Part shown: positions 32,193 to 52,656 of the stretch, piece after piece
Numbering within the stretch: position 1 is the stretch's first letter
How the letters are laid out: every line of letters begins with the position of its first letter
IMG/VR virus record: IMGVR_UViG_3300008259_000147
Coordinates: 1-64,000 of that record
Strand: one strand, 5' to 3'
Length of the DNA: 64,000 bases
DNA from: a virus
Program-made: the position numbers and the translations under genes
Notes under the pieces: generated by a model
Seen by the model: the letters and a program-made list of their open reading frames with translations, nothing else
Database searches by the model: none
Told to the model about the DNA's origin: nothing

Positions 32193-35100
32193 TTATTGTC
32201 CAAATGGGCTTAGTATTGCACCACCAGTACCTGTTCCTCTATTGCGTTGGTAAATTGAATTAAGATAATTTCTTGCAGCAGTATTTGCAGCATCAATTGC
32301 TTCTTTTTTATCTAGGCCATACCCATTAGGGTCTGAATACATTTTGTAATAATAATCAAATGCATCATTATAATCAACACCTGATCCACCACCTGTTAAA
32401 GGAGTATCATAAATACTTTTCAATGTAGGGTTTACAGCAACACTATATGGTGTTTGGAACTGATAAGGATACTGTGCATTTATCAACATCTGATTTAATA
32501 CATTATTATAGCCTTTACCAAAAGCACTTGCAAATCCTGCATCTTTAGCATTTTGATTCATTGCGTTTTCTTTAGCAATTGCATTAATGCTATTCATATA
32601 ATCACTCTTTTCTTTCTCACCCAGCATTGTAAATTGATTAATGTTTTGAACATTAGCCGCTTGAGTCTTTAAGAATTGATCTGTATTTAATGCTTCTGTT
32701 TGTTGTTGAATATCTGAAGCAGCTTTTAATCCTTTTCCAGTAACACCTAATGCAGAACCTCTTGCTTCAGGACCTGTACCCATTCCTTCAACTGTTTGAG
32801 TAACAGCACCTATTGGTTCATAGTTTTCATTTCTATAAACAGGAGACATTAAAGAAGGATTTGGTAATCCATAGTATGCATGATAATCAGGTATTTTCAT
32901 ACCTGCTGCAGCAATCATAGCAGCTTGATCTGAAGGAAACCATTGACCTAATCCATAACCTGTAGGTGATTGAAATCCTGGTTTCCGTGTAGTTATAACT
33001 TCTTCTTCTGGTGTTTCTTCTGGATCCTTCTCAGTTTTAGTTTCAACTTTTTTAACTTTCTTTTTAATACCTGGTGCAGACCATGTATAAATACCAAACT
33101 TTTTATCTTTTTGATATGGGCCTTTTTTATTGACAAAATACTCAGATAAACCATTGGCCTTTCTCCACTCATTGTATTTATTTTGAAACCATTCTACAGC
33201 TTTCTCTCTTGTTGCGTTATCTCTAGATGTAGCATCTGCTCTCCATGAATCAACACCACTACCATAATCTTTAAGAATAGTATCATGACGAGTAATAAAG
33301 TTGTCTACATCCAATGCTTCTTGTGCATTAGTTTCAGAATTAGTTACTGTATAGTACCCTAAATCTGGATCATAATGTTGTGTATCAAATGCTCCAAACT
33401 TTTTATTAGGCATTATTACTTCAAAATCATCTGTATTTTGAAGAGCTGTTTCTGGAATAAGTTGAGTAAATTCTCCAGTATCTGCAAACTTTTGTAATTC
33501 ACCACCTGTTTTCTTAGGCCATAAATAACTACCTGTTGTATCCTTAGGATGATAATTACCACGTCTTATTTTTATTACTTTCTTTTTCTTTTCTGCTGCA
33601 GCTTTGGCTGCTGCTTCTGCTCTAGCTTTAGCTTCTGCCTCTGCTTGTGCTTTAGCAGCTGCTGCTTGTGCTTGTGCTTGTGCTATACTATCTGCAGCTG
33701 AATAATTAGTTAGTACTTTATTAGAATCTACTGCTACCTTGTTAGAATCTACCATAGGGGTAGTTCTAAACATGCTATCTGCAATATGATATGCTACAGG
33801 ATCCCTCATCATCTTTTTAATATCATCATTAGATGCTGTAGGATAAAGTTGTTTAAATATATTAAACATTGCTAAACTATCTGCCTGAGCTTTTGCAAGT
33901 TTACCAGTATCAGTAACAGAAGGAACTGTAGGAGTTCCTATAGGATTTGCAGGTATGCTTTTACCAGGATTACCAGGTTGAGGTCCACTAAGTAAATCAG
34001 TAGTTGCATCTACAATTCCTAATCCACCAGCTAAACCTACCCATGGTAAAACTTTTTTTAACAAAGGAGATCCTGCATAGATATCTTTTGCTTGTTGCCA
34101 TCTTGTATATGCTTCTGCAGATGCATTTGCTTGCTCTGCTGTAGCACCAGCTGACTCTGCTGCTGCATAAGCAGCTTCATATGCTGCTGCTGCTTCTTCA
34201 GATTCTTGAAGCCCTTGCTCTGATGGTCTAGTCCATCTTCTGCCTTTTTTTACAGCATTGGCTGCAACTTTTTCTGCTTCTGCAGCTGCTTCTGCAGCCT
34301 TTGCTGCAGTCTCTGCAGTTTTAGCTGCTTTAGTACCTCTAATTGTATTTAGAGTCCATTTACCAGCATTCCACACTAGTTTACCAGCTTGTGTTATTCC
34401 CCATAAGCCTCCAGTAAGACCTAATACATCTAACATGCCAGCATCACCTGTAGGCCTTATTTTTGGCACAGCCCCAGATTGCCATGTATCAAGTCTTTGT
34501 CCATCAGGAGTTTGCCAATATTCAAATCCAGGTCTTTGTTCATAAGATTGACGAAAATAATAATCAAGTGGTAACTTACCTTCTACCACCACCTCATCCA
34601 TCAATGGACTTATGTTGCCTGTAGATTGATCTACAAAATAATTTTGACCTGGTCTTCTAATGCCTACTGGAATACTTTGATCACCTGGATCATAAAATAC
34701 TCCTGGATCAGATGGATTAGCTTCTAACTTATAACCTAATCTTCTTTCAAGATCATCTAAAGTTTCATATTGGTATTTATGATCACTACCAGACCTTGTC
34801 ATCCACTTTGTTTCTTCACCATCTTGTGCTCTACGTAGTGTTCCACCTCTTTTCATTTTTTGTGGACCTTGTGGGTGTTTAAAATCTGATCCTAACAAAG
34901 GCATAGCAATAGCAGGAATTCCATCAGGAAATCCTTTCATACCTTCTTGCACAAGTGCCAACTGACCCAACTTTTTCATGTTGTTGTCAATCATCAACTG
35001 AGCAGTCTTCTTTGTCATTGCATCCGCATTAGGATCATTTAACAATGCTTTATATTTATTGAGATCATATCTCTGAGCTACCTTAGCAGGAGTCACTGCT

Positions 35101-35459
35101 TTACTACTAGACATATTAAAGATACCCTTCAATAAATCTTTATTTTTTATTAAAAGACCTCTATAGTCAGAGAATACAAAGCTACCATCTGGAACATTTA
35201 ATGGTGTACCACCTTGAGAGTGTCTCTTGCCACCAATCTTAGCATGTTCAACCATGCCATCATTGTCAAGATCTCCCACCACAGTTTCTCCTCTCTCAGC
35301 CTCAATAGTAGCCTCATCTCTTGGTACAGCAGAAAGTGTAGTAGTTACATTATTACTTGCTGTTTTATTTTCGTAGTTCCAAATACTACCTGTTACAAGG
35401 CCATAGTTGCGCTGGTCTCCCATACTACCACCTCTGACTCTATTAATTTTTACTTTCAT
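32193..35459 (-). CDS. Putative virion cargo protein (1088 aa) with GG-linkers
   Basis: N-domain 'IEAERGETVV...GKRHSQGG...FVFSD' resembles crAss-like cargo proteins; GG-linkers at 34818-34856 and 33474-33515; Ala-rich and hydrophobic central module. Confidence 0.6.
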   Translation of the reverse strand: MKVKINRVRGGSMGDQRNYGLVTGSIWNYENKTASNNVTTTLSAVPRDEATIEAERGETVVGDLDNDGMVEHAKIGGKRHSQGGTPLNVPDGSFVFSDYRGLLIKNKDLLKGIFNMSSSKAVTPAKVAQRYDLNKYKALLNDPNADAMTKKTAQLMIDNNMKKLGQLALVQEGMKGFPDGIPAIAMPLLGSDFKHPQGPQKMKRGGTLRRAQDGEETKWMTRSGSDHKYQYETLDDLERRLGYKLEANPSDPGVFYDPGDQSIPVGIRRPGQNYFVDQSTGNISPLMDEVVVEGKLPLDYYFRQSYEQRPGFEYWQTPDGQRLDTWQSGAVPKIRPTGDAGMLDVLGLTGGLWGITQAGKLVWNAGKWTLNTIRGTKAAKTAETAAKAAEAAAEAEKVAANAVKKGRRWTRPSEQGLQESEEAAAAYEAAYAAAESAGATAEQANASAEAYTRWQQAKDIYAGSPLLKKVLPWVGLAGGLGIVDATTDLLSGPQPGNPGKSIPANPIGTPTVPSVTDTGKLAKAQADSLAMFNIFKQLYPTASNDDIKKMMRDPVAYHIADSMFRTTPMVDSNKVAVDSNKVLTNYSAADSIAQAQAQAAAAKAQAEAEAKARAEAAAKAAAEKKKKVIKIRRGNYHPKDTTGSYLWPKKTGGELQKFADTGEFTQLIPETALQNTDDFEVIMPNKKFGAFDTQHYDPDLGYYTVTNSETNAQEALDVDNFITRHDTILKDYGSGVDSWRADATSRDNATREKAVEWFQNKYNEWRKANGLSEYFVNKKGPYQKDKKFGIYTWSAPGIKKKVKKVETKTEKDPEETPEEEVITTRKPGFQSPTGYGLGQWFPSDQAAMIAAAGMKIPDYHAYYGLPNPSLMSPVYRNENYEPIGAVTQTVEGMGTGPEARGSALGVTGKGLKAASDIQQQTEALNTDQFLKTQAANVQNINQFTMLGEKEKSDYMNSINAIAKENAMNQNAKDAGFASAFGKGYNNVLNQMLINAQYPYQFQTPYSVAVNPTLKSIYDTPLTGGGSGVDYNDAFDYYYKMYSDPNGYGLDKKEAIDAANTAARNYLNSIYQRNRGTGTGGAILSPFGQ

Positions 35460-35477
35460 AAACTTTTAAAATTTATT

Positions 35478-35508
35478 TTTGTAAATGCTGCTTATTTAAA
35501 TTTACAAA
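35478..35508 (-). promoter_or_regulatory. 9-bp inverted repeat (TTTGTAAAT-N13-ATTTACAAA) overlapping a promoter-like TTTGTAAATT
   Basis: Arms at 35478-35486 and 35500-35508 in one of the few intergenic gaps; TTTGTAAATT also occurs upstream of 53773. Confidence 0.4.
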
Positions 35509-35523
35509 TATTTTGTGAAATTA

Positions 35524-38292
35524 TCAAATAAATTCTACACTTCCTCCAGCTGCATATATTTGCTGAATGAATGCATCTTGTTCTTCAGGACTAAGAGTTG
35601 ATAAATCTACTTCAGAACCATCTTCATAATCATCTAATATGCTACCACCCATTTTAGCTTCACCGATTTGAGTTAAATATGCTGATGGAAAATTGTTATA
35701 TCCAAAGTTTTGATTACCAGGAGTATATGCATTCATTCCCATGTAGTTAGTAGTACCAACAGGACTTGGTGTACCATTTCTTGTAGGAGCTTTATTAGCA
35801 GCTCCTTTGTATGCCATTCCTGTACTCACAGTATTAAAGTTATCTTGAGCATTTTTATAGAGAGCTTTTCTATCATTTTCTTTAATTCCTGACATTACTC
35901 CAGATTGAAAGGCCATAGTATTCATATAGTTATTCATTCCACTTAATGGTGTACGATATGAGAATGTCCAATGAGCATCTCCACCAGGAGCATACTTTTC
36001 AATTCCTCCTCCAAACTCATATCCATTCCAACCTTTGCCGCGACCTCTTGCCCAATGCTTATAAGCCCTATCATCATTTCTATATAAGCCAGTATTAAAA
36101 TCATCATCTGCATTATACATTTCATTTAATGCATCTTGTCTTTTTTGCATTCTTGAAGCTTCCCAACCTCTTCCATTAGGATTTCCCCATGGTTTATACG
36201 GGTTATAATCAGTATCATTTATTCCTTTTCCATAGTTTCTAAAAGCTCTTTCTAAATTATGATATCGTGTTTCATCAAAATTAGGATCATTCATCATATC
36301 TGCATATTTAGGGTTATAAATATTTTGATCATAATCCCAACCTTTTCCTCTGTAATTTTCATTTTTAATACCTCTCTCATATTGTCGTAATGCTTTATTC
36401 TGATTACGATATGCATTTATATTAAAATTAGTATCTGCTAACATAGCATTCATTCTATCTTGCAAATTACTATTTTTATTATTTGAATTTGAGTTTTGAT
36501 CATTGTTTTCAGAAGTTTGATCACTGTCATTATTTCCAGAACCTTGATTATTATTTGAACCAGGTCCACTATTTGTATTAGGTCCACTATTTGTACCAGC
36601 TCCTTGACCAGAAGCACCAAAGTAATAAGGAACTGCTGCTAATGCTCCTGCATTTTTAGCTCTAAATCTTTGTTTCTTACCATCAGCATTGTAGTAAGTA
36701 CCTCTAAATTTAGGCTTGCCCATCAGTCCCATCATTCCCATTGGATTTGCACCCATGCCAAAAGCACCTAGTGCTTGTCCTAATAATCCAAGACCTGCTC
36801 CTGCTTGACTACCTAAAAGTTGAGTAATTGCATTACCTCCAACATATGATGCATATGGATTAGAAAAATTAGAACCACCTGGATTAGAACCACCACCTGA
36901 ATTACCAGAACCTTGATTATTACCACCTTGGTTATTACCAGGATTAGTTGACCCTGCTCTATTTGAACCAGCTACACCAGGGTTGTTGCTATAATACATG
37001 TCATAATAACCAGATTCATTTGCTGGTAAATTATATGCTGTACCATCATCCCCTTCATAATACCACTCATTAAATTTATTATCAAATTTTATTTTTCTAT
37101 TTTGACCACTTAAATCTTGATATACATAATTTGGATCATTATAGTTAATTCCATCTGCAGCTTTAGGTAAAGATCCACCATTCACATATTTTGCAAAATC
37201 ATTTACACTACCAAATTTACCTTTCTTCTTTTTCTTAGGATTGTGATCCATACCACCTTCTTTTAAAATTTGATATAACTCATCAATATTAGATTGACCA
37301 CCCATCTCAAACATAAAGTTAGGTGTAGTTTCACCTGCTCTATCATATGGTAAATATGTTTGAGCTTGAGGAAATGCTTCTCCACCTGCTTTCATTGCAC
37401 CCAATGCACCTTGCATTTGCACTTGCAAATTTGCAGGTAATTGATTTATAGGAATTTGCCCATTCATAGCTTGTTGCATAAGCATACCTTCTTTATCAGA
37501 TTTACCATACAAATCTGAATACATTGGATTATTTATTGGATTACCCATTCCCATCATAGAATCACCCATGTTTCCAAAACCACCAAGGAAATTGCCTAAA
37601 TTACCTAGACCAGCTTTAGGCAAAGATTGCCCACCTGCTTCATATAAGTCATCCATCATATAAGCAGTACCACCATTAGCTTTATAATACCAATTAAGAT
37701 TTTGAGCTTGTGGTGATGGATTATAATTGTCAAAACAATCAATGCAAGGTTGGCCACCCATCTCGGCCATCCCCATTTGCTCTTGATCTTGTTGCATCAT
37801 ATCTTGTTCATCTTCTTGAGATACTTGTTCTTCTTGAGATGCTTGTAATTCTTTAGCAACAGCTGTCACTAATCCTTGGGCCTGTTCAACTGACATTCCC
37901 ATTTTTACAAGTTCTTGCATAATTTGTTTGGGATCAGCACCTTGCTGAAGCCCTTGAGCAACCATACTGATTATTTTTTGTTGTTGATCAGAAGATGCTC
38001 CACCTTCTTGAGCGTATTGCATTGTATTCATTTTATCTGAGTTTGAATAATTAAATGTACCTAATGAGTTAGCAGGTATTTCAACTGCCATGTTTCCTGG
38101 AACCACTACATTCTCTTGACCAGGTTGAGCAAATATAACATCTCCTGTTGGACTTAGTATGTAAGTGTGATCTATTTGATTCTTAAAAGTAAGAGGAGTA
38201 TATCCATCTCTGCCTTTAATGATTGCACCATTTGTAGGATCTACATCTAGTCCTTGCTGGTCTGTTCTAAAGTGTATTGGTTTTCTATCCAT
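35524..38292 (-). CDS. Low-complexity Q/N/G/M-rich putative cargo protein (922 aa) with about 11 xxxGG motifs
   Basis: Composition and repeated YEAGG, MKAGG, FEMGG, YVNGG, YEFGG and similar motifs. Confidence 0.6.
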   Translation of the reverse strand: MDRKPIHFRTDQQGLDVDPTNGAIIKGRDGYTPLTFKNQIDHTYILSPTGDVIFAQPGQENVVVPGNMAVEIPANSLGTFNYSNSDKMNTMQYAQEGGASSDQQQKIISMVAQGLQQGADPKQIMQELVKMGMSVEQAQGLVTAVAKELQASQEEQVSQEDEQDMMQQDQEQMGMAEMGGQPCIDCFDNYNPSPQAQNLNWYYKANGGTAYMMDDLYEAGGQSLPKAGLGNLGNFLGGFGNMGDSMMGMGNPINNPMYSDLYGKSDKEGMLMQQAMNGQIPINQLPANLQVQMQGALGAMKAGGEAFPQAQTYLPYDRAGETTPNFMFEMGGQSNIDELYQILKEGGMDHNPKKKKKGKFGSVNDFAKYVNGGSLPKAADGINYNDPNYVYQDLSGQNRKIKFDNKFNEWYYEGDDGTAYNLPANESGYYDMYYSNNPGVAGSNRAGSTNPGNNQGGNNQGSGNSGGGSNPGGSNFSNPYASYVGGNAITQLLGSQAGAGLGLLGQALGAFGMGANPMGMMGLMGKPKFRGTYYNADGKKQRFRAKNAGALAAVPYYFGASGQGAGTNSGPNTNSGPGSNNNQGSGNNDSDQTSENNDQNSNSNNKNSNLQDRMNAMLADTNFNINAYRNQNKALRQYERGIKNENYRGKGWDYDQNIYNPKYADMMNDPNFDETRYHNLERAFRNYGKGINDTDYNPYKPWGNPNGRGWEASRMQKRQDALNEMYNADDDFNTGLYRNDDRAYKHWARGRGKGWNGYEFGGGIEKYAPGGDAHWTFSYRTPLSGMNNYMNTMAFQSGVMSGIKENDRKALYKNAQDNFNTVSTGMAYKGAANKAPTRNGTPSPVGTTNYMGMNAYTPGNQNFGYNNFPSAYLTQIGEAKMGGSILDDYEDGSEVDLSTLSPEEQDAFIQQIYAAGGSVEFI
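36044..36445 (-). repeat. Three ~25-aa protein repeats (M..D.NF....Y.N..[KR]A...[YW]..G)
   Basis: MLADTNFNINAYRNQNKALRQYERG / MMNDPNFDETRYHNLERAFRNYGKG / MYNADDDFNTGLYRNDDRAYKHWARG. Confidence 0.7.
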
Positions 38293-38300
38293 TTTATTTA

Positions 38301-40277
38301 TTATTTATAGCCTCTTGCTTTTAAGGCATTTATTATTGTATTATACATTTGATCATCTATATCTGCTTTTGCATCCACTTTAGTTTTTTTATCGTTTGGA
38401 TCATTAATTATTAGCTTACCATCTTTGTCTTTTTTACCTTCATAATATTTCATATAACCATCTCTAATTTCTTTATGAGTTATAATATCTTTTAGCTTTA
38501 AGTTATATGTATCTAATAGTTCACTAATAGCTTCTACAGTAGATTCTAATTGATTAGGTGTAAGAGGTGGTGCATAACCACCACTATCATTTCCTGGATT
38601 TTGAAGTTCTATACCATATGAAAAATCATTTACATTATCTCTATTTTCATATCTAGAGTGACCTGCGTGAGCTGTTACTTGTTCTGGTGAAGCATAAACT
38701 CTTCTTGTACCATTTGCTAATACTGCAAGATGTGCATCATTTTCACCAGGTCTCATAAATTGATTATGTAAATCTATATCAGATTGTGTCCAATCACCTT
38801 TTGCATCAGGTTTAAATGCAGTCCAATGTAATACAATTTTTTTCATTTCATTTTTTAAAGCATGTCCTTTTTTATAACTTTCATCTTTTTCAGTTCTAAT
38901 ATTAGGACTTTGATAGTATTCTACTTTGTGTCTGCTAGGGGTTGTGCCTGTACCTGCAATATACAATACATTACCTGCTACACCACCTGAATTTAATGCA
39001 TCATATTCTTTTAGTCTATCAGAGGTAAAAGTTTTATCTTTAAATGAAAGTCCTTTTGAATAAGTTCCATTATCTGTTGCATAAACAGTAACATATTTTG
39101 AATTACCTTTTATCTTCTTAAATTCATTTTTAATATGTTTAAGACTACCCATTACAAAGTATGTCTTTTTAGTATCAGGGTTTTGCATAATAAATTTACC
39201 ACCTTCTACAGAACCAAAATAATCTTCATCACCATTAGTTCTTGTCATGATATTGATACTACCTTTTTTTTCAGTCTTCTCATCATCTGATAACATATTA
39301 GTAATAGGTATTTGATAATTATTATTACCATGATCTAAATCAGGTTTTGTTCTAGATTTACCATCTATTTCATCAAACGATACCACCTTGTTAGAAAATG
39401 TTTGTGAAATTAATACATCCTTTCTGTTTTTAAAATCTTTGAATGTACCAGCTACAAAATTTCCATTTGCATCAACTCCAAAGTATGTGCTATTATCAGA
39501 TGCTGCCTTATACTCACTTGGAGCAAGGAATGGTCTAAATGCAGTTATTATTGCACCATCTGATTGGAAAGGTGTATAGTCTCCTCTATTTCTAACTTTA
39601 AATTTCATATTAGCTAAATTTATATTACCTGCTAATAAAGTTTGACCTGTTTTGTTTGTTACATTTGGTATTTCAACTTCTTTTAATTGAACTTTATTTT
39701 TGTTAAGTTTGTTATAATATTCAATTGTTCCTAGTGGTTTAGGTGTTTGCTTTTCACTAAAATCTATTTTAACTGCATCAGGATCATCTCCACTATACAT
39801 TTTATATTTTCTAGTTAATCCATTTATTGCAAGATTTTTATAGTAGTTAGCTACGTCAGCTGCTTCATTATAAGTATTTTTAATATCTCCAACTACAGTT
39901 GCTAAATAATCTTCTGTTCCACCAACAAGAGTTGATAATTCATTTTGAATGTTTTCAGTCAATGAAGGTTTTTGTTTAACTACTTTTGAACTAGAATTAC
40001 CTTTTACATAACCATTAAAAGGATCAATGTTTATTTTAGGTGATGCAACTGATCCACTTGACCAAAGATATTGTAATGAAGGTTCTTGTTTTTTAGGAGT
40101 AGGATTATATCTTTGTTGATAGTTATATTGATTAGATTTTAACAATCCTAAAATATCTTTTTCTTCATTGCTATAACCCATCATTTGATATGTGTTATCC
40201 AAAAACCCATATAAGTTTTTCTTAGCAATATCATTATCTGAAATATCTAGCCAATTATCTTTTCCTTTATCTGTCAT
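38301..40277 (-). CDS. Protein with C-terminal N-acetylmuramoyl-L-alanine amidase (Amidase_2-like)
   Basis: IVLHWTA...AHL...TAHAG...NDFSYGIEL...Q...IITHKEI zinc-amidase motifs in the last ~190 aa. Confidence 0.8.
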   Translation of the reverse strand: MTDKGKDNWLDISDNDIAKKNLYGFLDNTYQMMGYSNEEKDILGLLKSNQYNYQQRYNPTPKKQEPSLQYLWSSGSVASPKINIDPFNGYVKGNSSSKVVKQKPSLTENIQNELSTLVGGTEDYLATVVGDIKNTYNEAADVANYYKNLAINGLTRKYKMYSGDDPDAVKIDFSEKQTPKPLGTIEYYNKLNKNKVQLKEVEIPNVTNKTGQTLLAGNINLANMKFKVRNRGDYTPFQSDGAIITAFRPFLAPSEYKAASDNSTYFGVDANGNFVAGTFKDFKNRKDVLISQTFSNKVVSFDEIDGKSRTKPDLDHGNNNYQIPITNMLSDDEKTEKKGSINIMTRTNGDEDYFGSVEGGKFIMQNPDTKKTYFVMGSLKHIKNEFKKIKGNSKYVTVYATDNGTYSKGLSFKDKTFTSDRLKEYDALNSGGVAGNVLYIAGTGTTPSRHKVEYYQSPNIRTEKDESYKKGHALKNEMKKIVLHWTAFKPDAKGDWTQSDIDLHNQFMRPGENDAHLAVLANGTRRVYASPEQVTAHAGHSRYENRDNVNDFSYGIELQNPGNDSGGYAPPLTPNQLESTVEAISELLDTYNLKLKDIITHKEIRDGYMKYYEGKKDKDGKLIINDPNDKKTKVDAKADIDDQMYNTIINALKARGYK

Positions 40278-43200
40278 ATAAACCTGCTTGTGAGTTTAAT
40301 TTATTATACTCATGAGCACCTATACTATGCCATTCATTTAATTGATTAGGACTTGAAAAAGCAGCAGAAGGACTATTCCAATTTTTAAACTGTTGGTTGC
40401 TTAAAGGAAAATCACCTCTTTGTTGTACATAGTATTTATCTCCTTCTTGTTTAGTTTCAAAGTATCTATTAGGTTTACCATGCACCATGCTAAAAATAGA
40501 CATATCATTAGGATCTGTTCCATAAATAGATTTACCAAATCGTGCCTTAGATAATAAACCTCCTTGAGCTTTAGGTAAAAACTCACCACCTCTTTCTTTA
40601 TAAGTTGATGGATCTACCATATCAAGGTTAATTCCAAAATCCTTTAAAAAGAACTCTACTGTTCCTTTATTTCTTTCACGATTTGGAGCTTTCTTAGTAC
40701 CTCTAGCATATTGTTTTGCAATAATATTTCTATATTTTAATCTATCAGCATCTGACTTTGCTTGATTATAATCAACAATTGCATCAAGAAACTTAGGAAA
40801 AGCTTTTGAATATTTTTCAGTATCTTTTTGAAAAAAGTCTGGCCCTAGATTATACACATAATCTTCTATAAGTAATTGTTGATTATAAGGTAATGTATCA
40901 AATGTTAGATTTCTATCTTTAAATCTTTTATTATATCCTTGTACAGATTGATCATAATGAGAATTAAAATCATCTTTCATTAATTTAATAGCTTGATCAT
41001 CTGTAATTCCTTTTGCAAATCTTTTAGTTTTTACATCTTCAGGTGTTAACTTATGACCATAACCTATTGTAGGAAGCCCACCTTCATGAGATTTATAAGG
41101 CATCCATACATTTAATTTAGAATCCCAACCCTTTTTTACACCATTCTCTTGATATTTTAACCAATCATAATAATCATTAAGCTGTCTAGTTTTTAATTTT
41201 TCTTTATCTACAGTGGATTGGTTGGTTTGAGGAGAATCTGAATCATTAACTAAATTATTCCAAAGAGACTTACCAGCAAGCTTGAGAAAATCAATGTTTC
41301 CAAAAAGAACAGGGTTGGTCATAATAGCTGAACCAATTGTACCAAGATCACCTATAAATGAGTTTCCTCCATCTTGTTTTTTAGCAGGATAAAACTTTTT
41401 ATTAGAAGTGTTGGTAACATCTGCATCTGTTAAACGAACATACTGATCACTAGCATGTTGTCTACCATACCATGTATTTCCATAAGCTGGACTTAATGAT
41501 CCATCAGGACCTCTATGATACCAATAACCTGTTGCTTTATCATAAACAGATCCTTGTTTTTGATCTTGAGATCTAGACCAATATGTTACACCAGGTGTAT
41601 CTGCTGTATATGTATTTTTATAATAAAAATCTCTACCATTATTTAGCAACACTCTTCTCTCTTGTTCTGAAAGTTTATAAATATCTTTTTTATATTTATT
41701 CCATTCATTATCTAAATTTTGTTGTAAGGTAGGTGTCCAAGCATCTGTTTTAATATCTACATTATATGAACCTCTATTTGGTAATCCTGATTGCCCTATG
41801 CTTTTTAAATATTGATCAAGCATGTATACTCTAGGATCTCTTCCTGCATTATACATAAAATCTCCAGCAGATGCTTTTTCCATTGCTGTAGGAAATGCTC
41901 CAAGTTGAGGATAATATTTATCCATGTACCAATTTACAGCATCATCTTTACTAGCACCAACTGGTAATGCAGGATTACCAAAGTTAGATAAACCATAACC
42001 ACTAGCACTACCTCTATTATCTTCCCATGTCATTGAGTTGTATCCCATGTTCTGCACACTATCTCTTGGAGATACTTGTCCATACTTCCATTGATATTTA
42101 TCTAATGATCCACCTTCTCCAAAAAACTTATTTTGCAACATTTTAAATTCCATATCACTTAATATGGCGGCAGCATCTCTTACTTTAGCTCCTTTAGTTC
42201 CTATAATAGGAGTGATTAAATTAGGACCTACTCTTAAAGTTTTATCTTCAAACAAAACACCAGATGGAATTTGATTTATATCAAAATCAGGAAAATATCT
42301 ACTGTAATTTTTTCTGAGTCTTGATGTATTTCTTAATTGGTTTACTTGGTTATTTAAACCTATTGGCATAGGATCTGCAAAAACTTTGACATAGTAAGGA
42401 TTATTACCACCATATCTTTCTCCTATCCATGTAGGGTCTTCAGCAAAATAAAGAATGTCTTTATTTGATCCTTGTAATAATTGATCATGCCCACCACTTC
42501 TTCTACCTCTGTTAATAACATTTTCAGGAGCTGTGCTTGTTCCCATTATTTCTGCAACATCATAAGGGTTATCTGGATTTTTTCCTAAGCTCGCCATCCT
42601 CTTTCTAAATAAAGGATCATTTATAATTTCAGGACTTACATCCACAACTCTGTATAAAGGTCTTTGATTATACTGCGTTTGTAACCAACTTTCAAAACCT
42701 TCTGGAGATTCTGGCAAATATTTAATTAATCCTTCCTTTTGATAACTTTTAGCTAAGTTATAAGCACTTAATACATCTTGAGAAATTGGTGTTGATTTTT
42801 TAAATAACTCACTAAATGATTTTGGAAATATTCCCATTTGAGGATTGACTCCAAAAGCCATCCTACCTGCATTATCAAATGCATTAACAAATCTTTTAGT
42901 ACCTTTTAAACCTGTTCCAACAAAAGGATTTTGAAAAGTTGCTCTAGTAGATCCTTCAGGTGCTAATTTAGTATCATCTCTAAATTCACCTTGTGCAGGA
43001 TTATAATATTCATAATTACCGTAACCAGGTTTATTAGTATATATTTTAGATTCTTTTTGAGCAGCTTGTGATTTCTTAAAAGCTTTTGCTTGTTCTGCTT
43101 TTTCAATGCTACCATATGTTGCAATATCTTTAGCCACAGATTGTGCAGCTACATTTTTTGGAGCAACAGTTACAGTACTCCTTACATTAGCTGGATTAGT

Positions 43201-45258
43201 TTGCCCTAATGCTTGATTAATTAATTGAGCACTTACAGATCCTGTAAGTTGATGTTTAGGAAGTGAGCCTCCTTGTTTAGCATATTGAATATTATCAAGC
43301 ATTTGATTTTGATCAGGCTCATTTCTAGATATGGTATTTAACATATCTATAATTTGATCATCTGTATAAACACCTCTAAGTTGTTCTAATGCATCATAAC
43401 TACTATCAGTTAAAGGTTTATAAGAGCCAAACATATCTATAGTAGCCTTTTCTGTAAAAGGATTATAAATACCTTGATTTTTCATTTCAAACCTTAATGC
43501 ATTTAATCTAGCTCTTGTTTCAGTAGGACTAGCTACATAATAATTAAATTCATCCATGCCTACCATTTTAGGATAATGACCAAACATATTAGGTTTTTGT
43601 CTTTTACGAGCAGTATTGTATGCATATTTCCCCATCAAATTTATATCTGAAATAGGAATTAACGGACCACCAAAATCACTTGCATGACTTATTTCATGAA
43701 CATCAGTATCTAAAAGATTATCTTTTGAAAATGGTGTATTGGTTATTCTAGAGATAGGAGAATTTCTAATTTTAGAATCATCAGTTGGATAATAACCCAA
43801 TGCATTATAAGCATTTGATCCTTCGTATCCAATAACCTCCATATTATCTGATGTTCCATAACTATCAAGATAATTTCCACTTGTGTCATACCAATCCCGA
43901 AGATCATGTTTCCAATATTTTTGCTTTAATTTGGGATTTATATTTCTTGCAAAATTCCAATATGATGAAGGATACTTATCCAATTCAGTTCTACTAAATC
44001 CAGATACACCTTTATCTTCAGGATATTTTTCATCTATCTCCTTACGTGAAAATTTAACATCTATATTATTAATATTTTCTAATCTTTTATCTCTTATTTG
44101 TTGCCAAAATGGATCTGTAGAGTAAAATGAATATGTGTCAGTATCAAATGACAAAGGTCTATGATTAGTAAAAAACTGTTCCCATCCAGTTGGATTATCT
44201 TTTTGAACAGATCTTTGTAACATTTGTTGAGCCATTGGAGAATTTGTCCAATCTCTCATAAAGTCTCTTCCTTGTTCTACTAACTGATCATAATAGTTAA
44301 CTTCTACACCTTTCATCATACAAGTTTGAAATTCTTCATTCCATACTTGACCTTCAGGACATTCTCCTTTATTTCCAGATTGAGCTCTACGCAATGAGCC
44401 CCCTTGTCTATATCCATAATCTTGAGCATATGGACTAGGCCCTTGAAATTGCTTTTCAAAGTTTCTAGCTTCTCCTTCTAAAGTCCAAGGAGTATCATAC
44501 ATTGCAGGGTTAACATATCTATTATAAACTACTTCAGGAGAAGCAAAATTGAATGATGGATTGTTAGATAAAAATTCATCAGTAATATATTTTTGATCTA
44601 ATGCTCTTCTATTCCAATATTGCATTGCTGCATCATTCCCTGAAGGAATAGTTGGTTCTTTTAAAGGACCAGGATAAAATTCTGAATAACCAGAGTCTCC
44701 ATTTATGTCTTGCCAGTAATGAAACATTTCATGAGGAACAACTCCTGGTATATGTTTATCTGCATCTGATAAATGTATAGTCTTAGTTAAAGGCTCATAA
44801 AAGCTATTACCTTGATTTGTAGTATCAAAGTATACACCACCTTGACCACCTGTTTGACGAACACCCTCTTTCATTGAATCTAAAAACAAACTTTTTGGAG
44901 ATGCAGGATCTGCAGAATGCTGTCTCATAAGTTTATAAACTATATCATACTGAAGTCTTTCTGCAGGAGTTAACTGATTTGTAACATATAAGTATGTATC
45001 TAAATTCTCTGGATTCCTATCTGCTTCTGGATTTACCTTAGGCATATTTGAAGTATCTCTTATACACTTTTTTGTAACAGGATCTTTAATCCATCCTGTA
45101 GGACAACCACCTGTTTGTGTTTCTTTCTTTACAGGTTTTTTTGGTGTATTAAAATAATAGTCTACCATACCTTGCTGAGCTTTAGGTAATGGCAATGCAC
45201 CACCTGAGCGCATTACTCTCTTTTGTTGGATAAGGTGAAGAAGCTTGTCAGTTTTCAT
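40267..45258 (-). CDS. Modular multi-enzyme cargo protein (1663 aa): two zincins, ART-like domain, two lysozyme-like domains, separated by GG-linkers
   Basis: HEMFH 44719-44733; HEISH 43684-43698; LYR...LYFAED ~42434-42663; WEDNRG...DFMYNAG ~41843-42037; QENG...EGGLPTIGYGH...DYVYNLG ~40842-41161. Confidence 0.7.
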   Translation of the reverse strand: MKTDKLLHLIQQKRVMRSGGALPLPKAQQGMVDYYFNTPKKPVKKETQTGGCPTGWIKDPVTKKCIRDTSNMPKVNPEADRNPENLDTYLYVTNQLTPAERLQYDIVYKLMRQHSADPASPKSLFLDSMKEGVRQTGGQGGVYFDTTNQGNSFYEPLTKTIHLSDADKHIPGVVPHEMFHYWQDINGDSGYSEFYPGPLKEPTIPSGNDAAMQYWNRRALDQKYITDEFLSNNPSFNFASPEVVYNRYVNPAMYDTPWTLEGEARNFEKQFQGPSPYAQDYGYRQGGSLRRAQSGNKGECPEGQVWNEEFQTCMMKGVEVNYYDQLVEQGRDFMRDWTNSPMAQQMLQRSVQKDNPTGWEQFFTNHRPLSFDTDTYSFYSTDPFWQQIRDKRLENINNIDVKFSRKEIDEKYPEDKGVSGFSRTELDKYPSSYWNFARNINPKLKQKYWKHDLRDWYDTSGNYLDSYGTSDNMEVIGYEGSNAYNALGYYPTDDSKIRNSPISRITNTPFSKDNLLDTDVHEISHASDFGGPLIPISDINLMGKYAYNTARKRQKPNMFGHYPKMVGMDEFNYYVASPTETRARLNALRFEMKNQGIYNPFTEKATIDMFGSYKPLTDSSYDALEQLRGVYTDDQIIDMLNTISRNEPDQNQMLDNIQYAKQGGSLPKHQLTGSVSAQLINQALGQTNPANVRSTVTVAPKNVAAQSVAKDIATYGSIEKAEQAKAFKKSQAAQKESKIYTNKPGYGNYEYYNPAQGEFRDDTKLAPEGSTRATFQNPFVGTGLKGTKRFVNAFDNAGRMAFGVNPQMGIFPKSFSELFKKSTPISQDVLSAYNLAKSYQKEGLIKYLPESPEGFESWLQTQYNQRPLYRVVDVSPEIINDPLFRKRMASLGKNPDNPYDVAEIMGTSTAPENVINRGRRSGGHDQLLQGSNKDILYFAEDPTWIGERYGGNNPYYVKVFADPMPIGLNNQVNQLRNTSRLRKNYSRYFPDFDINQIPSGVLFEDKTLRVGPNLITPIIGTKGAKVRDAAAILSDMEFKMLQNKFFGEGGSLDKYQWKYGQVSPRDSVQNMGYNSMTWEDNRGSASGYGLSNFGNPALPVGASKDDAVNWYMDKYYPQLGAFPTAMEKASAGDFMYNAGRDPRVYMLDQYLKSIGQSGLPNRGSYNVDIKTDAWTPTLQQNLDNEWNKYKKDIYKLSEQERRVLLNNGRDFYYKNTYTADTPGVTYWSRSQDQKQGSVYDKATGYWYHRGPDGSLSPAYGNTWYGRQHASDQYVRLTDADVTNTSNKKFYPAKKQDGGNSFIGDLGTIGSAIMTNPVLFGNIDFLKLAGKSLWNNLVNDSDSPQTNQSTVDKEKLKTRQLNDYYDWLKYQENGVKKGWDSKLNVWMPYKSHEGGLPTIGYGHKLTPEDVKTKRFAKGITDDQAIKLMKDDFNSHYDQSVQGYNKRFKDRNLTFDTLPYNQQLLIEDYVYNLGPDFFQKDTEKYSKAFPKFLDAIVDYNQAKSDADRLKYRNIIAKQYARGTKKAPNRERNKGTVEFFLKDFGINLDMVDPSTYKERGGEFLPKAQGGLLSKARFGKSIYGTDPNDMSIFSMVHGKPNRYFETKQEGDKYYVQQRGDFPLSNQQFKNWNSPSAAFSSPNQLNEWHSIGAHEYNKLNSQAGLYDR

Positions 45259-48200
45259 CGTGGACTTAGAGTTTCTTTTGTTGTTACTACTTTTAAATTC
45301 ATTTTTTCAGATCCTGATTGCAATCTTCTTAAGATAACTCTATTTCCATAGTGTCTAAACTTCTTCCTTTGCAAAGGTGACTTAGCATAATTAACAGCTT
45401 GAGGATTTAGATTCTTCCTATAGCCATTACATTCTGTGATAAAGTTAGTAATTTGTAAGCCATTAAACTCACCTCTATCTCTTGTAGCATCCCAGAATTG
45501 ATTAAATCTGTATTTATTCTCTTCTTTAGCCACATGAATATCTATACTATCTAAATTTATCTTAGGGTAATTTAACAAAGCTACAGGATTATTTTTAGGT
45601 TTAATATGTAAATTTAATAAACCTGAGGTTTGTTCTGTATTATAAATAAGAGCTTGATCAAAGTTTCCATCCAACACATGATATCTATCTACACATCCTG
45701 TGTTGTATTTGAATACTTCTAAGTAATACTCCACACTTTTTATTGTAGTAACCGAAGCACCTGTGTTTACAGGAAACTCTATCTCCCATCCATAGTTTAC
45801 ACCATAGTAATTATTATAGCTATTACATAATACATTGTGTTTCCAAAAGTCATTACCTTTTATAGTGTAGAAATGATCATTTGTAGAGAACTCTAAGTTA
45901 GGATGCCAGTCATGAAAACTTATCCACATCTTAGTTTTAGGATCATAACTAATAGTCCAAGAGCAATCTTCAAAGTAGTTAGTATCGCTAGGATCAATTA
46001 AAGTTTTATTAGATGTGTTAATAGGAATTAAAGTAACTACAAATTTATTAATAAGATTTAATTGAATATTGGCAGGTACTTTAGAATCAATCAGTGTAAT
46101 ATTAATTTTAAAACTACCATCTGAAATATAAGGAAATGCTTTTTTAATATTTGGTGCTTTTTCTATTTCAGTGGCCACACAATTTACAAATGATTCAATA
46201 CCTGCATTTGTAGGAACTGTTGCAGTGTAAGTACATGTTGCAAGATCATATCCATTTATATTTCCAGATATCTGATAGCCATCTTGTAATTGAGTTGTAC
46301 TTGATCCATAAGTAACTTTGAAATTATATGAGTATGATGTTACTCGGAAGTTTTTAGTGTCAGGCATATACTCTATATCTGTCCCTACTTCTATTCCAGG
46401 CAATAACTTATAATCCTTTTTAGAGAAATATACAATCTCATATTGATTATCATATGTTGTTTGACATCCAATTCCTTTTACAGGATTATCTGTTAAATCG
46501 TAATTTGGAAAAGATTTTGTCAAACTGTATATCAGATTTTCTGCAAACCAATATCTCATACCATTCATAGAAATATCAACTATCTGATTACCAGCTAACT
46601 GCATAATCTTTCCATTTCTTTGACTCATGTAGAAAATACCATATGTAGTATTAATTACACTTCTTGTAGATTGACAAGAACCATATTCTAATTCAAGATC
46701 TGCATTTACAAGAGCTTGAAATGGTTGGTTAAATAAACCACCATCACCAATTGTAATTCTATTACCTGTAGATGTTTGTAATTCATCTACCCCATTAATA
46801 GTTGTAGGTGTTGCATCATCAAAGAAAATAGCAGAACCTGTTCTATTAATTGGCTTTACATTAGTAATTACATTTTCAAAATCTTTGTAGTTGTTGTTTA
46901 AGTATATTCTCCAGTTATCTCTAGATTGTTCATACTGCTGCTGCAAACTATAAACCATTCTAGCAGGATAATATTCAAAACAAGATGCAGGAATATCTGG
47001 ATCATATGATCTAGGCAAAACACTTGACCAACTTGTATTATTTATTGAAGCTTTTGATACAGATAAACTATAATCATATTTAAAGAACTCTGGCACTTTT
47101 ATAATGTCTGTTCTAAATAACTCATATAGATTAGTGTTGCCATATGGATTATAGAATTGCTCAGAAGGTAGAGCACCATAATCTCTACTTGCTAAATTAA
47201 TCTCAGACTCACAATAAAAATCCTTAACCCCATTTACAAAAAGATAGAAGTATCCATTCTTAATATAGAATGTCTTCTTTAACATATCCTGAATTCTTAA
47301 TCTATATGAATTTGGATCTCTATCTAAATGATATAATTTACTTGGGCCAAGTACCCAACTAGTAATTGTACCAACTGGATTAGTTACTAATTTTGCAAAC
47401 TTGCGAGCAAAATCTCTAATAAATCTTAAAGGATTTAAACTAAGTCTAGGAAATGCACTTGTGTTAATTGAAATATCATTAAAGTCTATTCCTTCAAATG
47501 TAGACCAATATCTAGGATACGCAACATTAGCATATAGCTTATAATCAAAGTCAGTTCCATCAGGCATGTTAAATAGCCATTGATTAAATAATGGAAATGT
47601 ATTTTTCTCAGTATATCTATTAATGTAGACATCTCCTCTAAAATAAACAGAAGAAGTGTGAGGATAGTTTTTTGTATATACAATCTTCTCTACACAAGTT
47701 GATACAGGAATCTGAGTTATAGATGATAATTGACCATATGCACCTTTTAAATCTAACTTTAATCCTACATAATAAGAAGAAATGTTTAAAGTAAAATTAT
47801 TATTTGTTGTTGTCCAAGCTTTTAATTGATTTACAGTTCTTCTACTTTGATCAATTGTTGAAGGATTTACTAATGTTCCAATTGTATTTATTATTGCAGT
47901 ATTTGGTCTAAATAAATTATTCACGGTATATGTTCCATCAAATACTTGAACACCTGACTCAACATATCTAGCTGCTTTAATTTGTCTTCTGTAGTTTTGA
48001 TTTTGAGGATTCTTTTTTGAACTATAAAATCCATGGCTATTATATTGTAATGCATATTGTCTCCAAGGCAAAAGTTCCATTACAAGCTTCATAGCATTAC
48101 CAAATCCTTGAGCTAACATGAATCCACCAATGCTAAATATTAAATTCATCTGAGTAATAAAACTCATTATGTCAGGAAGTATTCCAGGTTTTTTAGTAGA

Positions 48201-50498: not shown

Positions 50499-50883
50499 TT
50501 TGATTATCTACTTTTTCAAATTCTTTTTTGACTTTTTCACTGCCTATAAATTTATAGAATTCTTCACACAGAAACCCCATCAACCAAGCACATGTTTCTT
50601 CATCTGTAATATCTCTATCTTCTGCTATTCTTTTTGCAGCATGAAATAACTCATGACCTATTGTGTTATGATTAAGAAACTTAGCATCTATCATTACAAT
50701 GTATAAGCCACCATCTACAGTAATAGTAATACCTTCTGCTTCTTCAGCTGCAGTACCAGGAACTAATGTTCCCTTTGCATATTTCTTTTGTAAATACTTT
50801 TCTGACTTTCCCATCTCATTTGTTATTACAAATAAGATAGAACAATTGAATGTATTTACTCTTACTTTTTTAGTAATTCTCAT
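50491..50883 (-). CDS. Small zincin-like metalloprotein (130 aa)
   Basis: TIGHELFH...DEETCAWL (HExxH plus downstream Glu). Confidence 0.65.
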   Translation of the reverse strand: MRITKKVRVNTFNCSILFVITNEMGKSEKYLQKKYAKGTLVPGTAAEEAEGITITVDGGLYIVMIDAKFLNHNTIGHELFHAAKRIAEDRDITDEETCAWLMGFLCEEFYKFIGSEKVKKEFEKVDNQNG

Positions 50884-51982
50884 AAGGTCCCCTTACAGTT
50901 TTAAACCCACCATACCACGCATAGCTATTAAACATATTATAATACTTAGCATACATTGCTTTTCTATTTTTCTCCCACATTCTCTTTAGTTCACCAAAGT
51001 CAGGAGTATTAATAAAGCTAAGAGCATTTGTTCTTGCAGGTCTAAGCTTAGCTTGTATAAGCTGTAACTTTTGACTAGTATTCTCACCATTTAAAAATAA
51101 GTTCTCAAGTATTCTTTCTTTAAGAGCATATTCATAATAGTCATTAACTACTGGATGATCAAGCACTAATAAATTACCTTCATCATCTTCCATTACAGAT
51201 TCATAGTTAATATATACTCTACCTTCTTTAAAATTAATAGTATGAATAAATCCATCTCTAATTTTAAGTCTATAATTATAAGAACCTACATTTCTTAAGT
51301 TACACTCTGGTTCCCCATAGTTATATGGTAAAATCTCAATAGGAACTGGTCTAGGAAATTCTCTAATTAACCCTGGTCTTGTCTCTGTAATCTTACAACC
51401 ATCTGGACAATTGTCCACAGAAATAGAACAATTGGCTACAATGTTAGCAGCAGCAATAATGTTAATTCTTGCACCTGCGTAGTGTTCAAATACTTTAATC
51501 TTTACTTGATCAGGATTGATAATTACATATTCAAAGTTTACATAATCTTTACTTGAATTTTGAACAGTAAGTACAATATTAGTTGAAGCTAAATTATGAG
51601 TTACAATGTTATCTCCAACAGATAAATCAGCCACTTGAATCAATGGTCTTGCATTTGTAATCTCTGCAAGTTTTAACATTTGATCATACATTGTCTGAAT
51701 CTGTGATGATACACAACTTGTATATGTATCATTACCAACCCCACACAACATTGCAAAATTCATTACATAAAAATCAGCAGGAAGTTTAGCTCTGCCATCT
51801 TTTACATCAATCATTTTACCCCTTGATTGATTAATCTTTAAACCAAGTTCATAATTGATCTTAATTGCAATCTTTAATAATTCTTGAGGATTGATAAAGT
51901 TATCCTGATCATAAGTGTAGAAATCACTTCTGACAGAATTCATTAAATCATCAAAGTTTCTATATTGGAGTTCTGTCTTCAT
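50870..51982 (-). CDS. Tail tubular / ring protein (370 aa)
   Basis: 'AKLPADFY' and 'FKEGRVYINY...DDEG...V.D' pattern of crAss-like ring proteins; synteny. Confidence 0.65.
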   Translation of the reverse strand: MKTELQYRNFDDLMNSVRSDFYTYDQDNFINPQELLKIAIKINYELGLKINQSRGKMIDVKDGRAKLPADFYVMNFAMLCGVGNDTYTSCVSSQIQTMYDQMLKLAEITNARPLIQVADLSVGDNIVTHNLASTNIVLTVQNSSKDYVNFEYVIINPDQVKIKVFEHYAGARINIIAAANIVANCSISVDNCPDGCKITETRPGLIREFPRPVPIEILPYNYGEPECNLRNVGSYNYRLKIRDGFIHTINFKEGRVYINYESVMEDDEGNLLVLDHPVVNDYYEYALKERILENLFLNGENTSQKLQLIQAKLRPARTNALSFINTPDFGELKRMWEKNRKAMYAKYYNMFNSYAWYGGFKTVRGPYENY

Positions 51983-52656
51983 TACTTAGTGTTGCTTAAG
52001 AAGTCTTGATTAATATCTTGAGGAACTTGTAAACTTGTAGTTAAATCTTTCATTACACTTTGTTCCATTTCTCCATATAAGTACATAGGTACTGAGAATG
52101 GCTCATCTTGTCTATAAATACAATCATGGTCTGTATCACAATTGTATTGACCAATACCAGATCTAAATAATCCTTCCACTCTAATTGCTGGCCAATCTAC
52201 ACTAGGTACATAGATATAGTCATTTACAATGTAGTAGTAAGGAGTCTTGTTATATCTAAATGTCTTCTGCTTAATCATAGCTTGATAAGTAGAAGGAAAA
52301 GTTAAAGTAAGTGGAGTAGTTCCATCTATACTTGTAATAGATCTAATGATAGGACCATAACTACCCTCATACGCAGGGGGAATTTTATCCTTGCTTCTCT
52401 TAATAGTACAGCCTGATTCTATGCAAAAACAACCAGTGTCTGCTTTATCTACATCTATTAAACAGAAATAGTCTAAGGTGTGAAATATATTGTTGTACTT
52501 TCTAAGTACACCTTTATCATCCTCTCTTTTAATGAGCCATGATACGTGTTTGAGAATTAAAGAAAAGATATATCTATCTGTAACAAAGGCATCTATGTTT
52601 ACAGATTTAATCTGATTCCTAATTCTACTAATTGCTTCTGATACTGTTGCTACCAT
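51982..52656 (-). CDS. Tail ring / adaptor protein (224 aa)
   Basis: 'T..E.ISRIR...D.F.TDR.I', 'YY.IVNDYIY' and 'IRVEGLF' pattern; synteny. Confidence 0.6.
   Translation of the reverse strand: MVATVSEAISRIRNQIKSVNIDAFVTDRYIFSLILKHVSWLIKREDDKGVLRKYNNIFHTLDYFCLIDVDKADTGCFCIESGCTIKRSKDKIPPAYEGSYGPIIRSITSIDGTTPLTLTFPSTYQAMIKQKTFRYNKTPYYYIVNDYIYVPSVDWPAIRVEGLFRSGIGQYNCDTDHDCIYRQDEPFSVPMYLYGEMEQSVMKDLTTSLQVPQDINQDFLSNTK

Follow-up and report, generated by a model that had tools for sequence, protein, structure and literature searches.

A short Gly-Gly peptide recurs in the products of three genes at positions 32193-45258 of the window, i.e. the first 64 kb (64,000 nucleotides) of the 78,655-bp linear virus contig IMGVR_UViG_3300008259_000147 of IMG/VR, and the question raised by this locus is whether the peptide is cut, bound by a partner, or a simple joint. 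The contig was about 63% complete (CheckV), with a GC content of about 31% and nearly all genes on the minus strand. Its source is an uncultured freshwater crAss-like podophage, and 32193-45258 was assigned to the cargo/ejection block, as the genes after the muzzle gene of crAss001 encode cargo proteins (PMC10172136). The motif was found to be a peptide-level and clade-wide element, confined to the proteins of three gene positions (slots 1 to 3) and absent from the muzzle, the rings and the downstream giant cargo. Tentatively, we favour an uncut recognition or docking handle over a cleavage site. The three slot genes of the window are as follows.

40267..45258, minus strand: slot 1, putative cargo protein P0001 of 1663 amino acids (aa), with a leader and six modules of mosaic homology.
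35524..38292, minus strand: slot 2, putative cargo protein P0002 of 922 aa, studied by 68 homologues, alignments and an AlphaFold 2 (AF2) model.
32193..35459, minus strand: slot 3, putative cargo protein P0003 of 1088 aa, studied by 223 homologues and AF2.

The consensus of 217 unique instances comprised hydrophobic residues (M, Y, V) at P5-P7, K or R at P4 (152 copies, 70%), K, R or N at P3, and the G-G pair, followed by zero to two residues, L, P (or V/T/K), K/R, A/H/Y/F, Q, any residue and G, giving a peptide of about 16-20 residues. All eleven peptides quoted in the initial annotation of the window were found in the genes to which they had been ascribed. A non-circular hidden Markov model (HMM), trained on 203 distinct instances from 214 other proteins (neither the window nor any relative at 69% identity or more contributed), identified eight copies in the 1663-, 922- and 1088-aa proteins at 4.3-20.2 bits, when the best score was 3.1 bits in the other 42 open reading frames (ORFs) of the contig and 2.5 bits in 20 shuffled proteomes. 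The regular expression GG.{2,4}[KR][AYFH][AQ] gave 4, 3 and 2 matches in the 1663-, 922- and 1088-aa proteins, respectively (about 0.1 expected in each), and one in the other 20 ORFs, confirming the proposed enrichment. Three extra copies were degenerate (GGQSLPKAGLG, GGEAFPQAQ and GGGIEKYAPGG). The bare hydrophobic-x-x-GG core was clearly enriched in the 922-aa protein only (12 copies, 5.1 expected; 2 of 500 shuffles); the 1663-aa protein showed weak enrichment (7 copies, 3.3 expected). Eight GG pairs were invariant or nearly so in the slot-2 family, with 20-49 homologues aligned. The count of about 20 copies first put forward thus consists of the eight HMM copies, the three degenerate copies and these eight P0002 pairs; it holds when bare cores are counted, whereas the extended form numbers about 8-11.

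Nucleotide identity between copies peaked at 0.59 and codons differed from copy to copy, and therefore the conservation resides in the peptide; a repeat or recombination site at the DNA level was ruled out on the same basis. A DNA-level scan of IMG/VR for N-GG-x-LPKHQ found nothing. The homologues (30 for P0001, 68 for P0002 and 223 for P0003) were all metagenomic and most of them carried the motif. In a set of 12 loci (the window, four from IMG/VR and seven from JGI metagenomes), 62 HMM matches of at least 5 bits fell within 36,586 aa of slots 1-3, and none within 45,167 aa of muzzle, 967-family, 1555-family, giant and other ORFs. Among five genomes compared (G000 to G004), the complete G004 (125,114 bp, direct terminal repeats) had its top three HMM matches of 142 ORFs in slots 2 and 3. 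The initial remark that flanking genes lack the motif accordingly extends to the whole contig and to this complete 125-kb relative. The extended motif was not found in the distant relatives phi4:1 and csAssE-Sib. The motif is apparently undescribed, as a full-text literature search for it found unrelated papers only.

BLAST of P0001 against all collected proteins gave match ends that piled up at residues of about 30, 293-297, 654-670, 1045-1062, 1297-1311 and 1560-1570, coinciding with the motif positions, the weak KQDGG included. The six modules after the leader comprise two with an HExxH sequence (A and B), two of unassigned function (C and D), one phage lysozyme and one C-terminal module. 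The borders, with ends and starts of high-scoring segment pairs (HSPs) as P0001 residues, are listed below.

45169..45258 (motif 45169-45219), minus strand: leader MKTDKLLHLIQQKRVMRSGGALPLPKAQQG with motif copy 1 at its end, delimited by phmmer and carrier comparison.
44368..44418, minus strand: motif copy 2, YGYRQGGSLRRAQSGNK, ending HExxH module A; 13.8 bits, HSP ends at 293-297.
43237..43287, minus strand: motif copy 3, QYAKQGGSLPKHQLTGS, at the border of modules B and C; 20.2 bits, HSP ends and starts at 654-670.
42079..42129, minus strand: motif copy 4, KFFGEGGSLDKYQWKYG, at the border of modules C and D; 6.4 bits, nine HSP ends and starts at 1045-1062.
41365..41379, minus strand: weak junction KKQDGG (KQDGG) at the border of module D and lysozyme, unscored by the HMM; HSP ends and starts at 1297-1311.
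40555..40605, minus strand: motif copy 6, TYKERGGEFLPKAQGGL, behind the lysozyme; 9.1 bits, HSP ends at 1560-1570.

In an all-against-all comparison, 19% of 10,410 internal HSP ends were located at most 10 aa from a motif, against 3.7% under random motif placement (300 trials, maximum 6.2%); since the pairs are not independent, this fivefold excess should be read as an effect size, not as a P value. Six slot-2-family proteins had HExxH module A (P0001 residues 126-285) close to their C-termini, in each case with the motif behind it, where homology ended. In protein P0081 the leader motif was joined straight to the start of module B (SGNKGQCPEGQ...), meaning that P0001 holds a cassette of module A plus motif between two motif copies. 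Together with the variable middle of slot 3 and the differing wall hydrolases described below, these cases bear out the suggestion that the motif delimits interchangeable modules, and homology between relatives broke at the motif five times more commonly than by chance. Module exchange is thereby demonstrated, modules having been gained, lost and moved precisely at the motif peptides.

Of 31 slot-1 proteins, 19 started with MKTDKLLxLIQQK-x-x-MRSGGALPLPK[AH]Q and diverged right behind it. Run against 1.84 billion cluster representatives, phmmer matched this leader in 44 clusters and in each of them at residues 1 to about 30. Across 37 full-length carriers the first 28 residues were 87% identical, when residues 33-332 of the same proteins were alignable in only 46 of 666 pairs (7%). 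The leader is a hyper-conserved handle on a hypervariable module array.

P0002 was composed of folded N-terminal, helical and C-terminal domains and of conserved, disordered, GG-rich stretches, each with a predicted local distance difference test score (pLDDT) below 50 by AF2 and family alignment. Its copies and C-terminus were as follows.

37144..37194, minus strand: motif copy AKYVNGGSLPKAADGIN; 6.8 bits, pLDDT <50 at residues 372-384.
37600-37650 and 37351-37401, minus strand: degenerate GGQSLPKAGLG and GGEAFPQAQ in the disordered centre; pLDDT <50 at residues 167-265 and 300-336.
35977..36027, minus strand: degenerate copy NGYEFGGGIEKYAPGGD; 1.5-8.8 bits depending on the model, pLDDT <50 at residues 753-771.
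35527..35553, minus strand: slot-2 C-terminus IYAAGGSVEFI, with AAGGS[VI]E[YF][LI]-COOH in most of 67 homologues.

The copy AKYVNGGSLPKAADGIN aligned with the slot-2 family consensus F-x-x-Y-V-M-K-N-GG-x-LPKHQ. At the C-terminus, the GG pair is positioned five residues from the end and is followed by a beta-strand-like tail with a hydrophobic last residue. The disordered centre of P0002 also contained a near-invariant GG-x-P-C-I-D-C-F-D (CxxC; residues 179-187, window 37735-37760), which could be a metal or redox site of the slot-2 family, and a nearly invariant PQAQNLNW-Y/F-YK.

P0003 followed the order conserved N-domain, motif, variable middle, motif and conserved C-region, with GG205/206 invariant and G653 nearly invariant in the slot-3 family. 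The N-terminal HSPs of 119 slot-3 homologues stopped at residues 180-220, and the C-terminal HSPs began at residues 620-660.

34812..34862, minus strand: motif copy QKMKRGGTLRRAQDGEE, closing the N-domain; 17.1 bits, pLDDT <50 at residues 192-218.
33471..33521, minus strand: motif copy WPKKTGGELQKFADTGE preceding the conserved C-region; 5.3 bits, pLDDT <50 at residues 623-661.

Every copy in P0002 and P0003 was thus placed in a stretch of pLDDT <50 between domains at 80-95. The initial proposal that copies occupy domain boundaries agrees with the homology breakpoints and the AF2 models of P0002 and P0003, and in P0001 with the breakpoints.

Such positions could be explained by a passive role, in which the motif is a flexible hinge (a Gly-Gly helix cap and an extended stretch) that lets modules unfold and refold separately in tail passage, and persists in evolution because recombinants joined at it are in frame and viable. 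Short helices stopped right before GG346, GG372, GG882 and GG916 in the AF2 model of P0002, as a helix cap would predict, and swaps, as well as indels, seem to cluster at motif seams. However, a hinge needs neither the conserved L, P, K, Q and trailing G in over 200 independent contexts nor a leader of 87% identity, and the DNA identity between copies is insufficient to drive homologous recombination. This passive role is considered very improbable.

The modules themselves point to the cell envelope. The P0001 lysozyme was assigned by Pfam (Phage_lysozyme, residues 1387-1479) and PHROG 4290, and residues 1329-1501 had 29-31% identity with the corresponding domain of SP6-type internal virion proteins. 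In single-module searches of P0001 against Pfam and PDB sequences the lysozyme alone was identified, and the ESM Atlas returned only unnamed viral clusters, below 0.9. In relatives, Amidase_2, SLT, YkuD, glucosaminidase and PG_binding_1 modules were identified, and given these, the lysozyme and the Amidase_2 module of slot 1 (below), the nameable modules act on the cell wall. By analogy, the three slot proteins are most likely the envelope-breaching part of the cargo (ejection) set, packaged and injected.

Restriction of the motif to cargo with named modules active on the cell wall would suit an epitope that, after ejection, binds a conserved periplasmic or outer-membrane component of Bacteroidota and anchors or threads the modules. 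The Gly/Asn/Ser/Gln-rich disordered stretches also resemble the translocation domains of colicins, which are disordered and carry TolB-, TonB- and porin-binding boxes. Such an epitope is nevertheless improbable: the near-invariant leader better suits a conserved phage partner, and the nearby TonB-box-like PLMDEVVVEGK of P0003 (residues 285-295, window 34560-34595) was replaced by AYFPGAGAEGK in a 69%-identical relative and absent from the 119 homologues. This candidate TonB box was rejected as probably due to chance.

Another alternative is processing at the motif. Cutting would take place inside the particle or in the periplasm of the host, removing the leader and releasing each wall-hydrolase module, in a layout like that of a polyvalent protein or a MARTX-type effector array. 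The cutting enzyme would come either from the cargo (one of its zincin-like HExxH modules, or the HExxH region in the giant protein) or from the host (a periplasmic protease). The copies border every module and close the N-terminal leader, as do the gp21 sites of T4 capsid-targeting sequences, and the motif is found only on cargo with nameable cell-wall modules and not on the downstream giant cargo. P0001 has two HExxH sequences, at residues 176 and 521, and a motif copy lies directly behind module A in all cases; in the giant cargo protein HExxH is conserved in G000 (residue 1249) and in the complete G004 (residue 1228). Polyvalent proteins, moreover, have been predicted to be processed by embedded zincins (PMC5512222), and a host periplasmic protease would need no phage gene.

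Yet searches for a cutter were negative. The families C48 (PF02902), C5 (PF00770) and C39 (PF03412) were absent from G000-G004, poxvirus and African swine fever virus families not having been searched, and S78 (PF04586), S77 (PF03420) and ClpP (PF00574) were absent from G000, G003 and the complete G004, a divergent protease being possible. The HExxH modules matched no Pfam zincin, MPTase-PolyVal (PF18818) included, at E-values up to 10, and no PDB sequence, MPTase-PolyVal was also without a match in the five genomes, and in G004 slots 1-3 keep the motif without any HExxH. As for the peptide, about ten conserved positions across both sides of GG are long for a cut site, Pro stands directly after GG in 13 of the 217 copies (6%), and the eight slot-2 GG pairs, 15-40 residues apart, with the pair five residues from the C-terminus, would yield tiny peptides. 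In the solved crAss001 particle, the aromatic-GG core 427/428 of cargo protein gp45 lies within the contiguous modelled segment 425-552.

Adenain needs M, I or L at P4, and double-glycine leaders are hydrophobic at -4, -7, -12 and -15. The invariant Gly-Gly is shared with the sites of adenain (C5), Ulp-like (C48) and C39 enzymes, but here P4 is K/R in 70% of the copies, the leader has R at -4 and -7, and no cognate protease was found in G000-G004. A double-glycine bacteriocin leader was dismissed on the grounds of this R at -4 and -7 and of the lacking C39 family. Two self-cleaving mechanisms were likewise rejected: autoproteolysis by N-O shift at G|S/T/C on account of the residues found behind GG (L, S, E, P, Y and others), and Asn-Gly self-cleavage because N precedes GG in a minority of copies only.

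In all, processing is possible but somewhat unlikely. Its stronger version, in which a dedicated system for processing and delivery would read the motif as its recognition code and the joints would be cut by a packaged zincin or a conserved Bacteroidota periplasmic protease, is less likely again. If true, a muzzle-docking leader would be removed and a phage-specific cocktail of wall enzymes freed during or after ejection, and the phage would possess an equivalent of MARTX-type effector arrays, joined by a universal plug-in seam.

The division of slot 1 in the window, where its seventh module is split off, was considered as possible evidence of cleavage.

38301..40277, minus strand: Amidase_2 ORF of 658 aa (Pfam PF01510, E-value 9e-13), the seventh slot-1 module.

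P0001 and the amidase are fused in P0072 (2428 aa, 94% identical) and in L016 (2367 aa), and the junction in P0072 has a further motif copy, YKTYAQGGSLPKAQTG, in a linker of about 71 aa. At 40267-40290 of the window about 71 codons, including the YKTYAQGGSLPKAQTG copy, are missing in comparison to P0072 and the frame shifts, so that the amidase module could be produced only from an internal ATG. All relatives have slot 1 as one undivided ORF, which counts against cleavage; the split therefore gives no evidence of cleavage or of modular gene splitting and was rejected as a sign of either. It is either a local lesion (deletion with frame change) or an assembly error. In comparison to P0072, P0001 also has a 28-aa insertion (LLSKARFGKSIYGTDPNDMSIFSMVH...) right after motif copy 6 (residues about 1569-1596, window 40471-40554).

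The initial annotation had interpreted the motif as a maturation-cleavage and/or capsid-loading tag. This joint proposal is unproven; of its two parts cleavage is the less likely, and the loading tag is plausible by analogy. In the docking reading, which we tentatively prefer, the peptide would act as a short linear motif and be bound, within the particle, by a conserved partner, the candidates being the tail-barrel rings, the muzzle and the portal. The handle would tether each module, ordered for loading and for N-to-C ejection, and would double as the seam where in-frame module exchange survives selection, because a motif-flanked module of any kind would be handled correctly. The docking reading is supported by the motif being conserved yet disordered, which is the signature of linear binding motifs, by the conservation of candidate partners, the rings being 78-86% identical where the muzzle is 45-47%, and by the crAss001 precedent (below) of short gp45 segments attached to rings, muzzle and portal.

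Several observations weigh against docking. Proteins have anywhere between 0 and 6 copies, which is loose for an obligatory tag, the spacing from GG to L-x-K varies by 0-2 residues, and 48 of the 119 slot-3 homologues are without a copy of at least 7 bits. A motif at every module border and at the leader is a layout expected of a processing site too, and the domain borders of P0001 were drawn from homology breakpoints only. The analogy to crAss001 concerns a much simpler core without significant homology (BLAST none; hhalign E-value 0.33).

The surroundings of the slot genes are consistent with a virion module.

45255..50498, minus strand: muzzle-protein homologue of 1747 aa (PHROG 37948; 0 motif matches), opening the cargo block.

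By tblastn this protein matched the "Muzzle protein" of csAssE-Sib and gp042 of Cellulophaga phage phi4:1, a virion protein verified by mass spectrometry; the distant relative phi4:1 is the only phage with virion proteins verified in this way at equivalent positions. The slot-1 to slot-3 genes lie directly downstream of the muzzle gene and in the same order in the 11 other loci, and the gene order rings, muzzle, slots 1-3, 967-family and 1555-family is common to the four IMG/VR and seven JGI loci. After P0003, the coding-strand order continues with ORFs of 967, 1555, 5242 and 2267 aa. The portal and major head protein are encoded at 75-78 kb of the contig (portal 77.8-78.6 kb, major capsid protein 75073-76698), and two ring-protein homologues are also present, at 51982-52656 and 50870-51982 of the window. 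Queries of P0002 and P0003 against 50,697 GenBank phage records (tblastn) gave no match, and the leader query against GenBank phages gave nothing relevant; a cultured carrier or relative was not found.

The ring identities given above refer to the homologues at 50870-52656 in comparison to the loci L006 and L007, the cargo of which can for the most part not be aligned; the final 250 residues of the muzzle protein are better conserved (66-69%) than its remainder. An ORF of 130 aa (50491-50883), situated between the ring genes and the muzzle gene, contains HELFH and had no family match. In the 5242-aa ORF, a giant RNA-polymerase-type cargo protein, HExxH occurs as YHEAFHAVF at residue about 1249 (window 20840-20860), and the conserved counterpart in G004 is YHETFHVVF at residue 1228 of ORF 32275-44238; neither matches Pfam. 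This conserved HExxH may mark a zincin like that of the N4 virion polymerase.

Gut and aquatic Bacteroidota have crAss-like phages among their most abundant viruses. In these phages the peptide and leader would offer a concrete, mutable handle on the loading and ejection of megadaltons of protein, and the motif would predict the sites of contact between cargo and tail barrel, or of cutting. It would also explain the quick reshuffling of wall-breaching enzymes between phages, suggest a natural tag by which foreign modules might be loaded into such particles in laboratory phage-host systems, and serve, along with the leader, as a simple annotation marker for envelope-breaching cargo genes of uncultured crAss-like genomes.

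Among the known systems, the closest in setting is the cargo of crAss001, C1 (gp45) and C2 (gp46), described by Bayfield et al. 2023 (PMC10172136; PDB 7QOG, 7QOI, 7QOJ, 7QOL, 8CKB). These proteins are housed inside capsid and tail barrel and are ejected ahead of the DNA, with N-to-C ejection proposed; the rings hold gp45 residues 214-245, the portal holds the compact domain 425-552, and the muzzle binds a 14-residue cargo helix (PMC10172136), which equals TDKLLHLIQQKRVM of the present phage in length. The location of the cargo genes directly after the muzzle gene is shared. In gp45 there are 6-7 aromatic-GG-x-L cores (209, 263, 332, 427, 562 and others) flanking the segments 214-245 and 425-552; the ring-bound segment starts four residues past AYGG, and A-F-G427-G428-W-L sits inside the portal-bound domain. 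Unlike P0001-P0003, gp45 and gp46 are without the LPK-x-Q extension (best HMM score -1.9), enzyme modules and a shared leader, and BLAST found no homology between the two sets. Alignment of the slot-3 family with gp45 by hhalign covered P0003 residues 84-156 and gp45 residues 466-531 at the non-significant E-value of 0.33. In that stretch (window 34990-35210), P0003 and the portal-bound domain share a weak G-x-P-x-x-V-x-x-G...VFSD. Foldseek and VIA searches with the whole P0003 model, single domains not having been searched, returned chance-level helical matches only, with no gp45 chain listed, which is no evidence of a new fold.

Internal virion proteins of the T7 gp16 and SP6 gp36 type share a wall-hydrolase domain, that of SP6-like phages being the relative of the P0001 lysozyme noted above, but they have a single fixed architecture without repeated junction motif or module arrays. 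Polymorphic toxins have short demarcation motifs (VENN of CdiA, PxxxxDPxGL of Rhs), and MARTX toxins carry serial effector domains. Only the logic of a short conserved peptide parting a delivery region from exchangeable modules is shared with these; the sequence is unrelated, the phage proteins have many internal copies, the setting is a particle and not secretion, and an autoprotease domain (CPD, Rhs aspartyl site) was not found. In T4 (internal proteins and gp21) and in phiKZ and SPN3US (ejection proteins), capsid-targeting sequences occur with prohead-protease sites (PMC5694885, PMC10052503). An N-terminal leader on packaged or ejected proteins and a recurrent short motif, in their case at the processing points, are in common, but the present motif is longer and conserved on both sides of GG, and no such protease family was detected.

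Polyvalent proteins, finally, combine 2-15 unrelated effector domains in a single polypeptide, encoded by a late or virion gene of the phage (Iyer et al. 2017, PMC5512222). Slot 1 has seven modules counting the amidase, with lysozyme and Amidase_2 confirmed by Pfam, and shares with them the large, mosaic, multidomain build, delivery with the DNA, and HExxH modules, candidate zincins in the present case, among lysozyme and other enzymes. It differs in that the named modules are mostly peptidoglycan hydrolases and not nucleic-acid or anti-restriction domains, and in that MPTase-PolyVal was unmatched. The polyvalent-protein paper (PMC5512222) describes no conserved junction peptide or leader, and the word "linker" is absent from it. 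The present system adds a universal junction peptide and a shared leader, described for neither crAss001 cargo nor polyvalent proteins, and would extend the polyvalent-protein concept by a defined seam.

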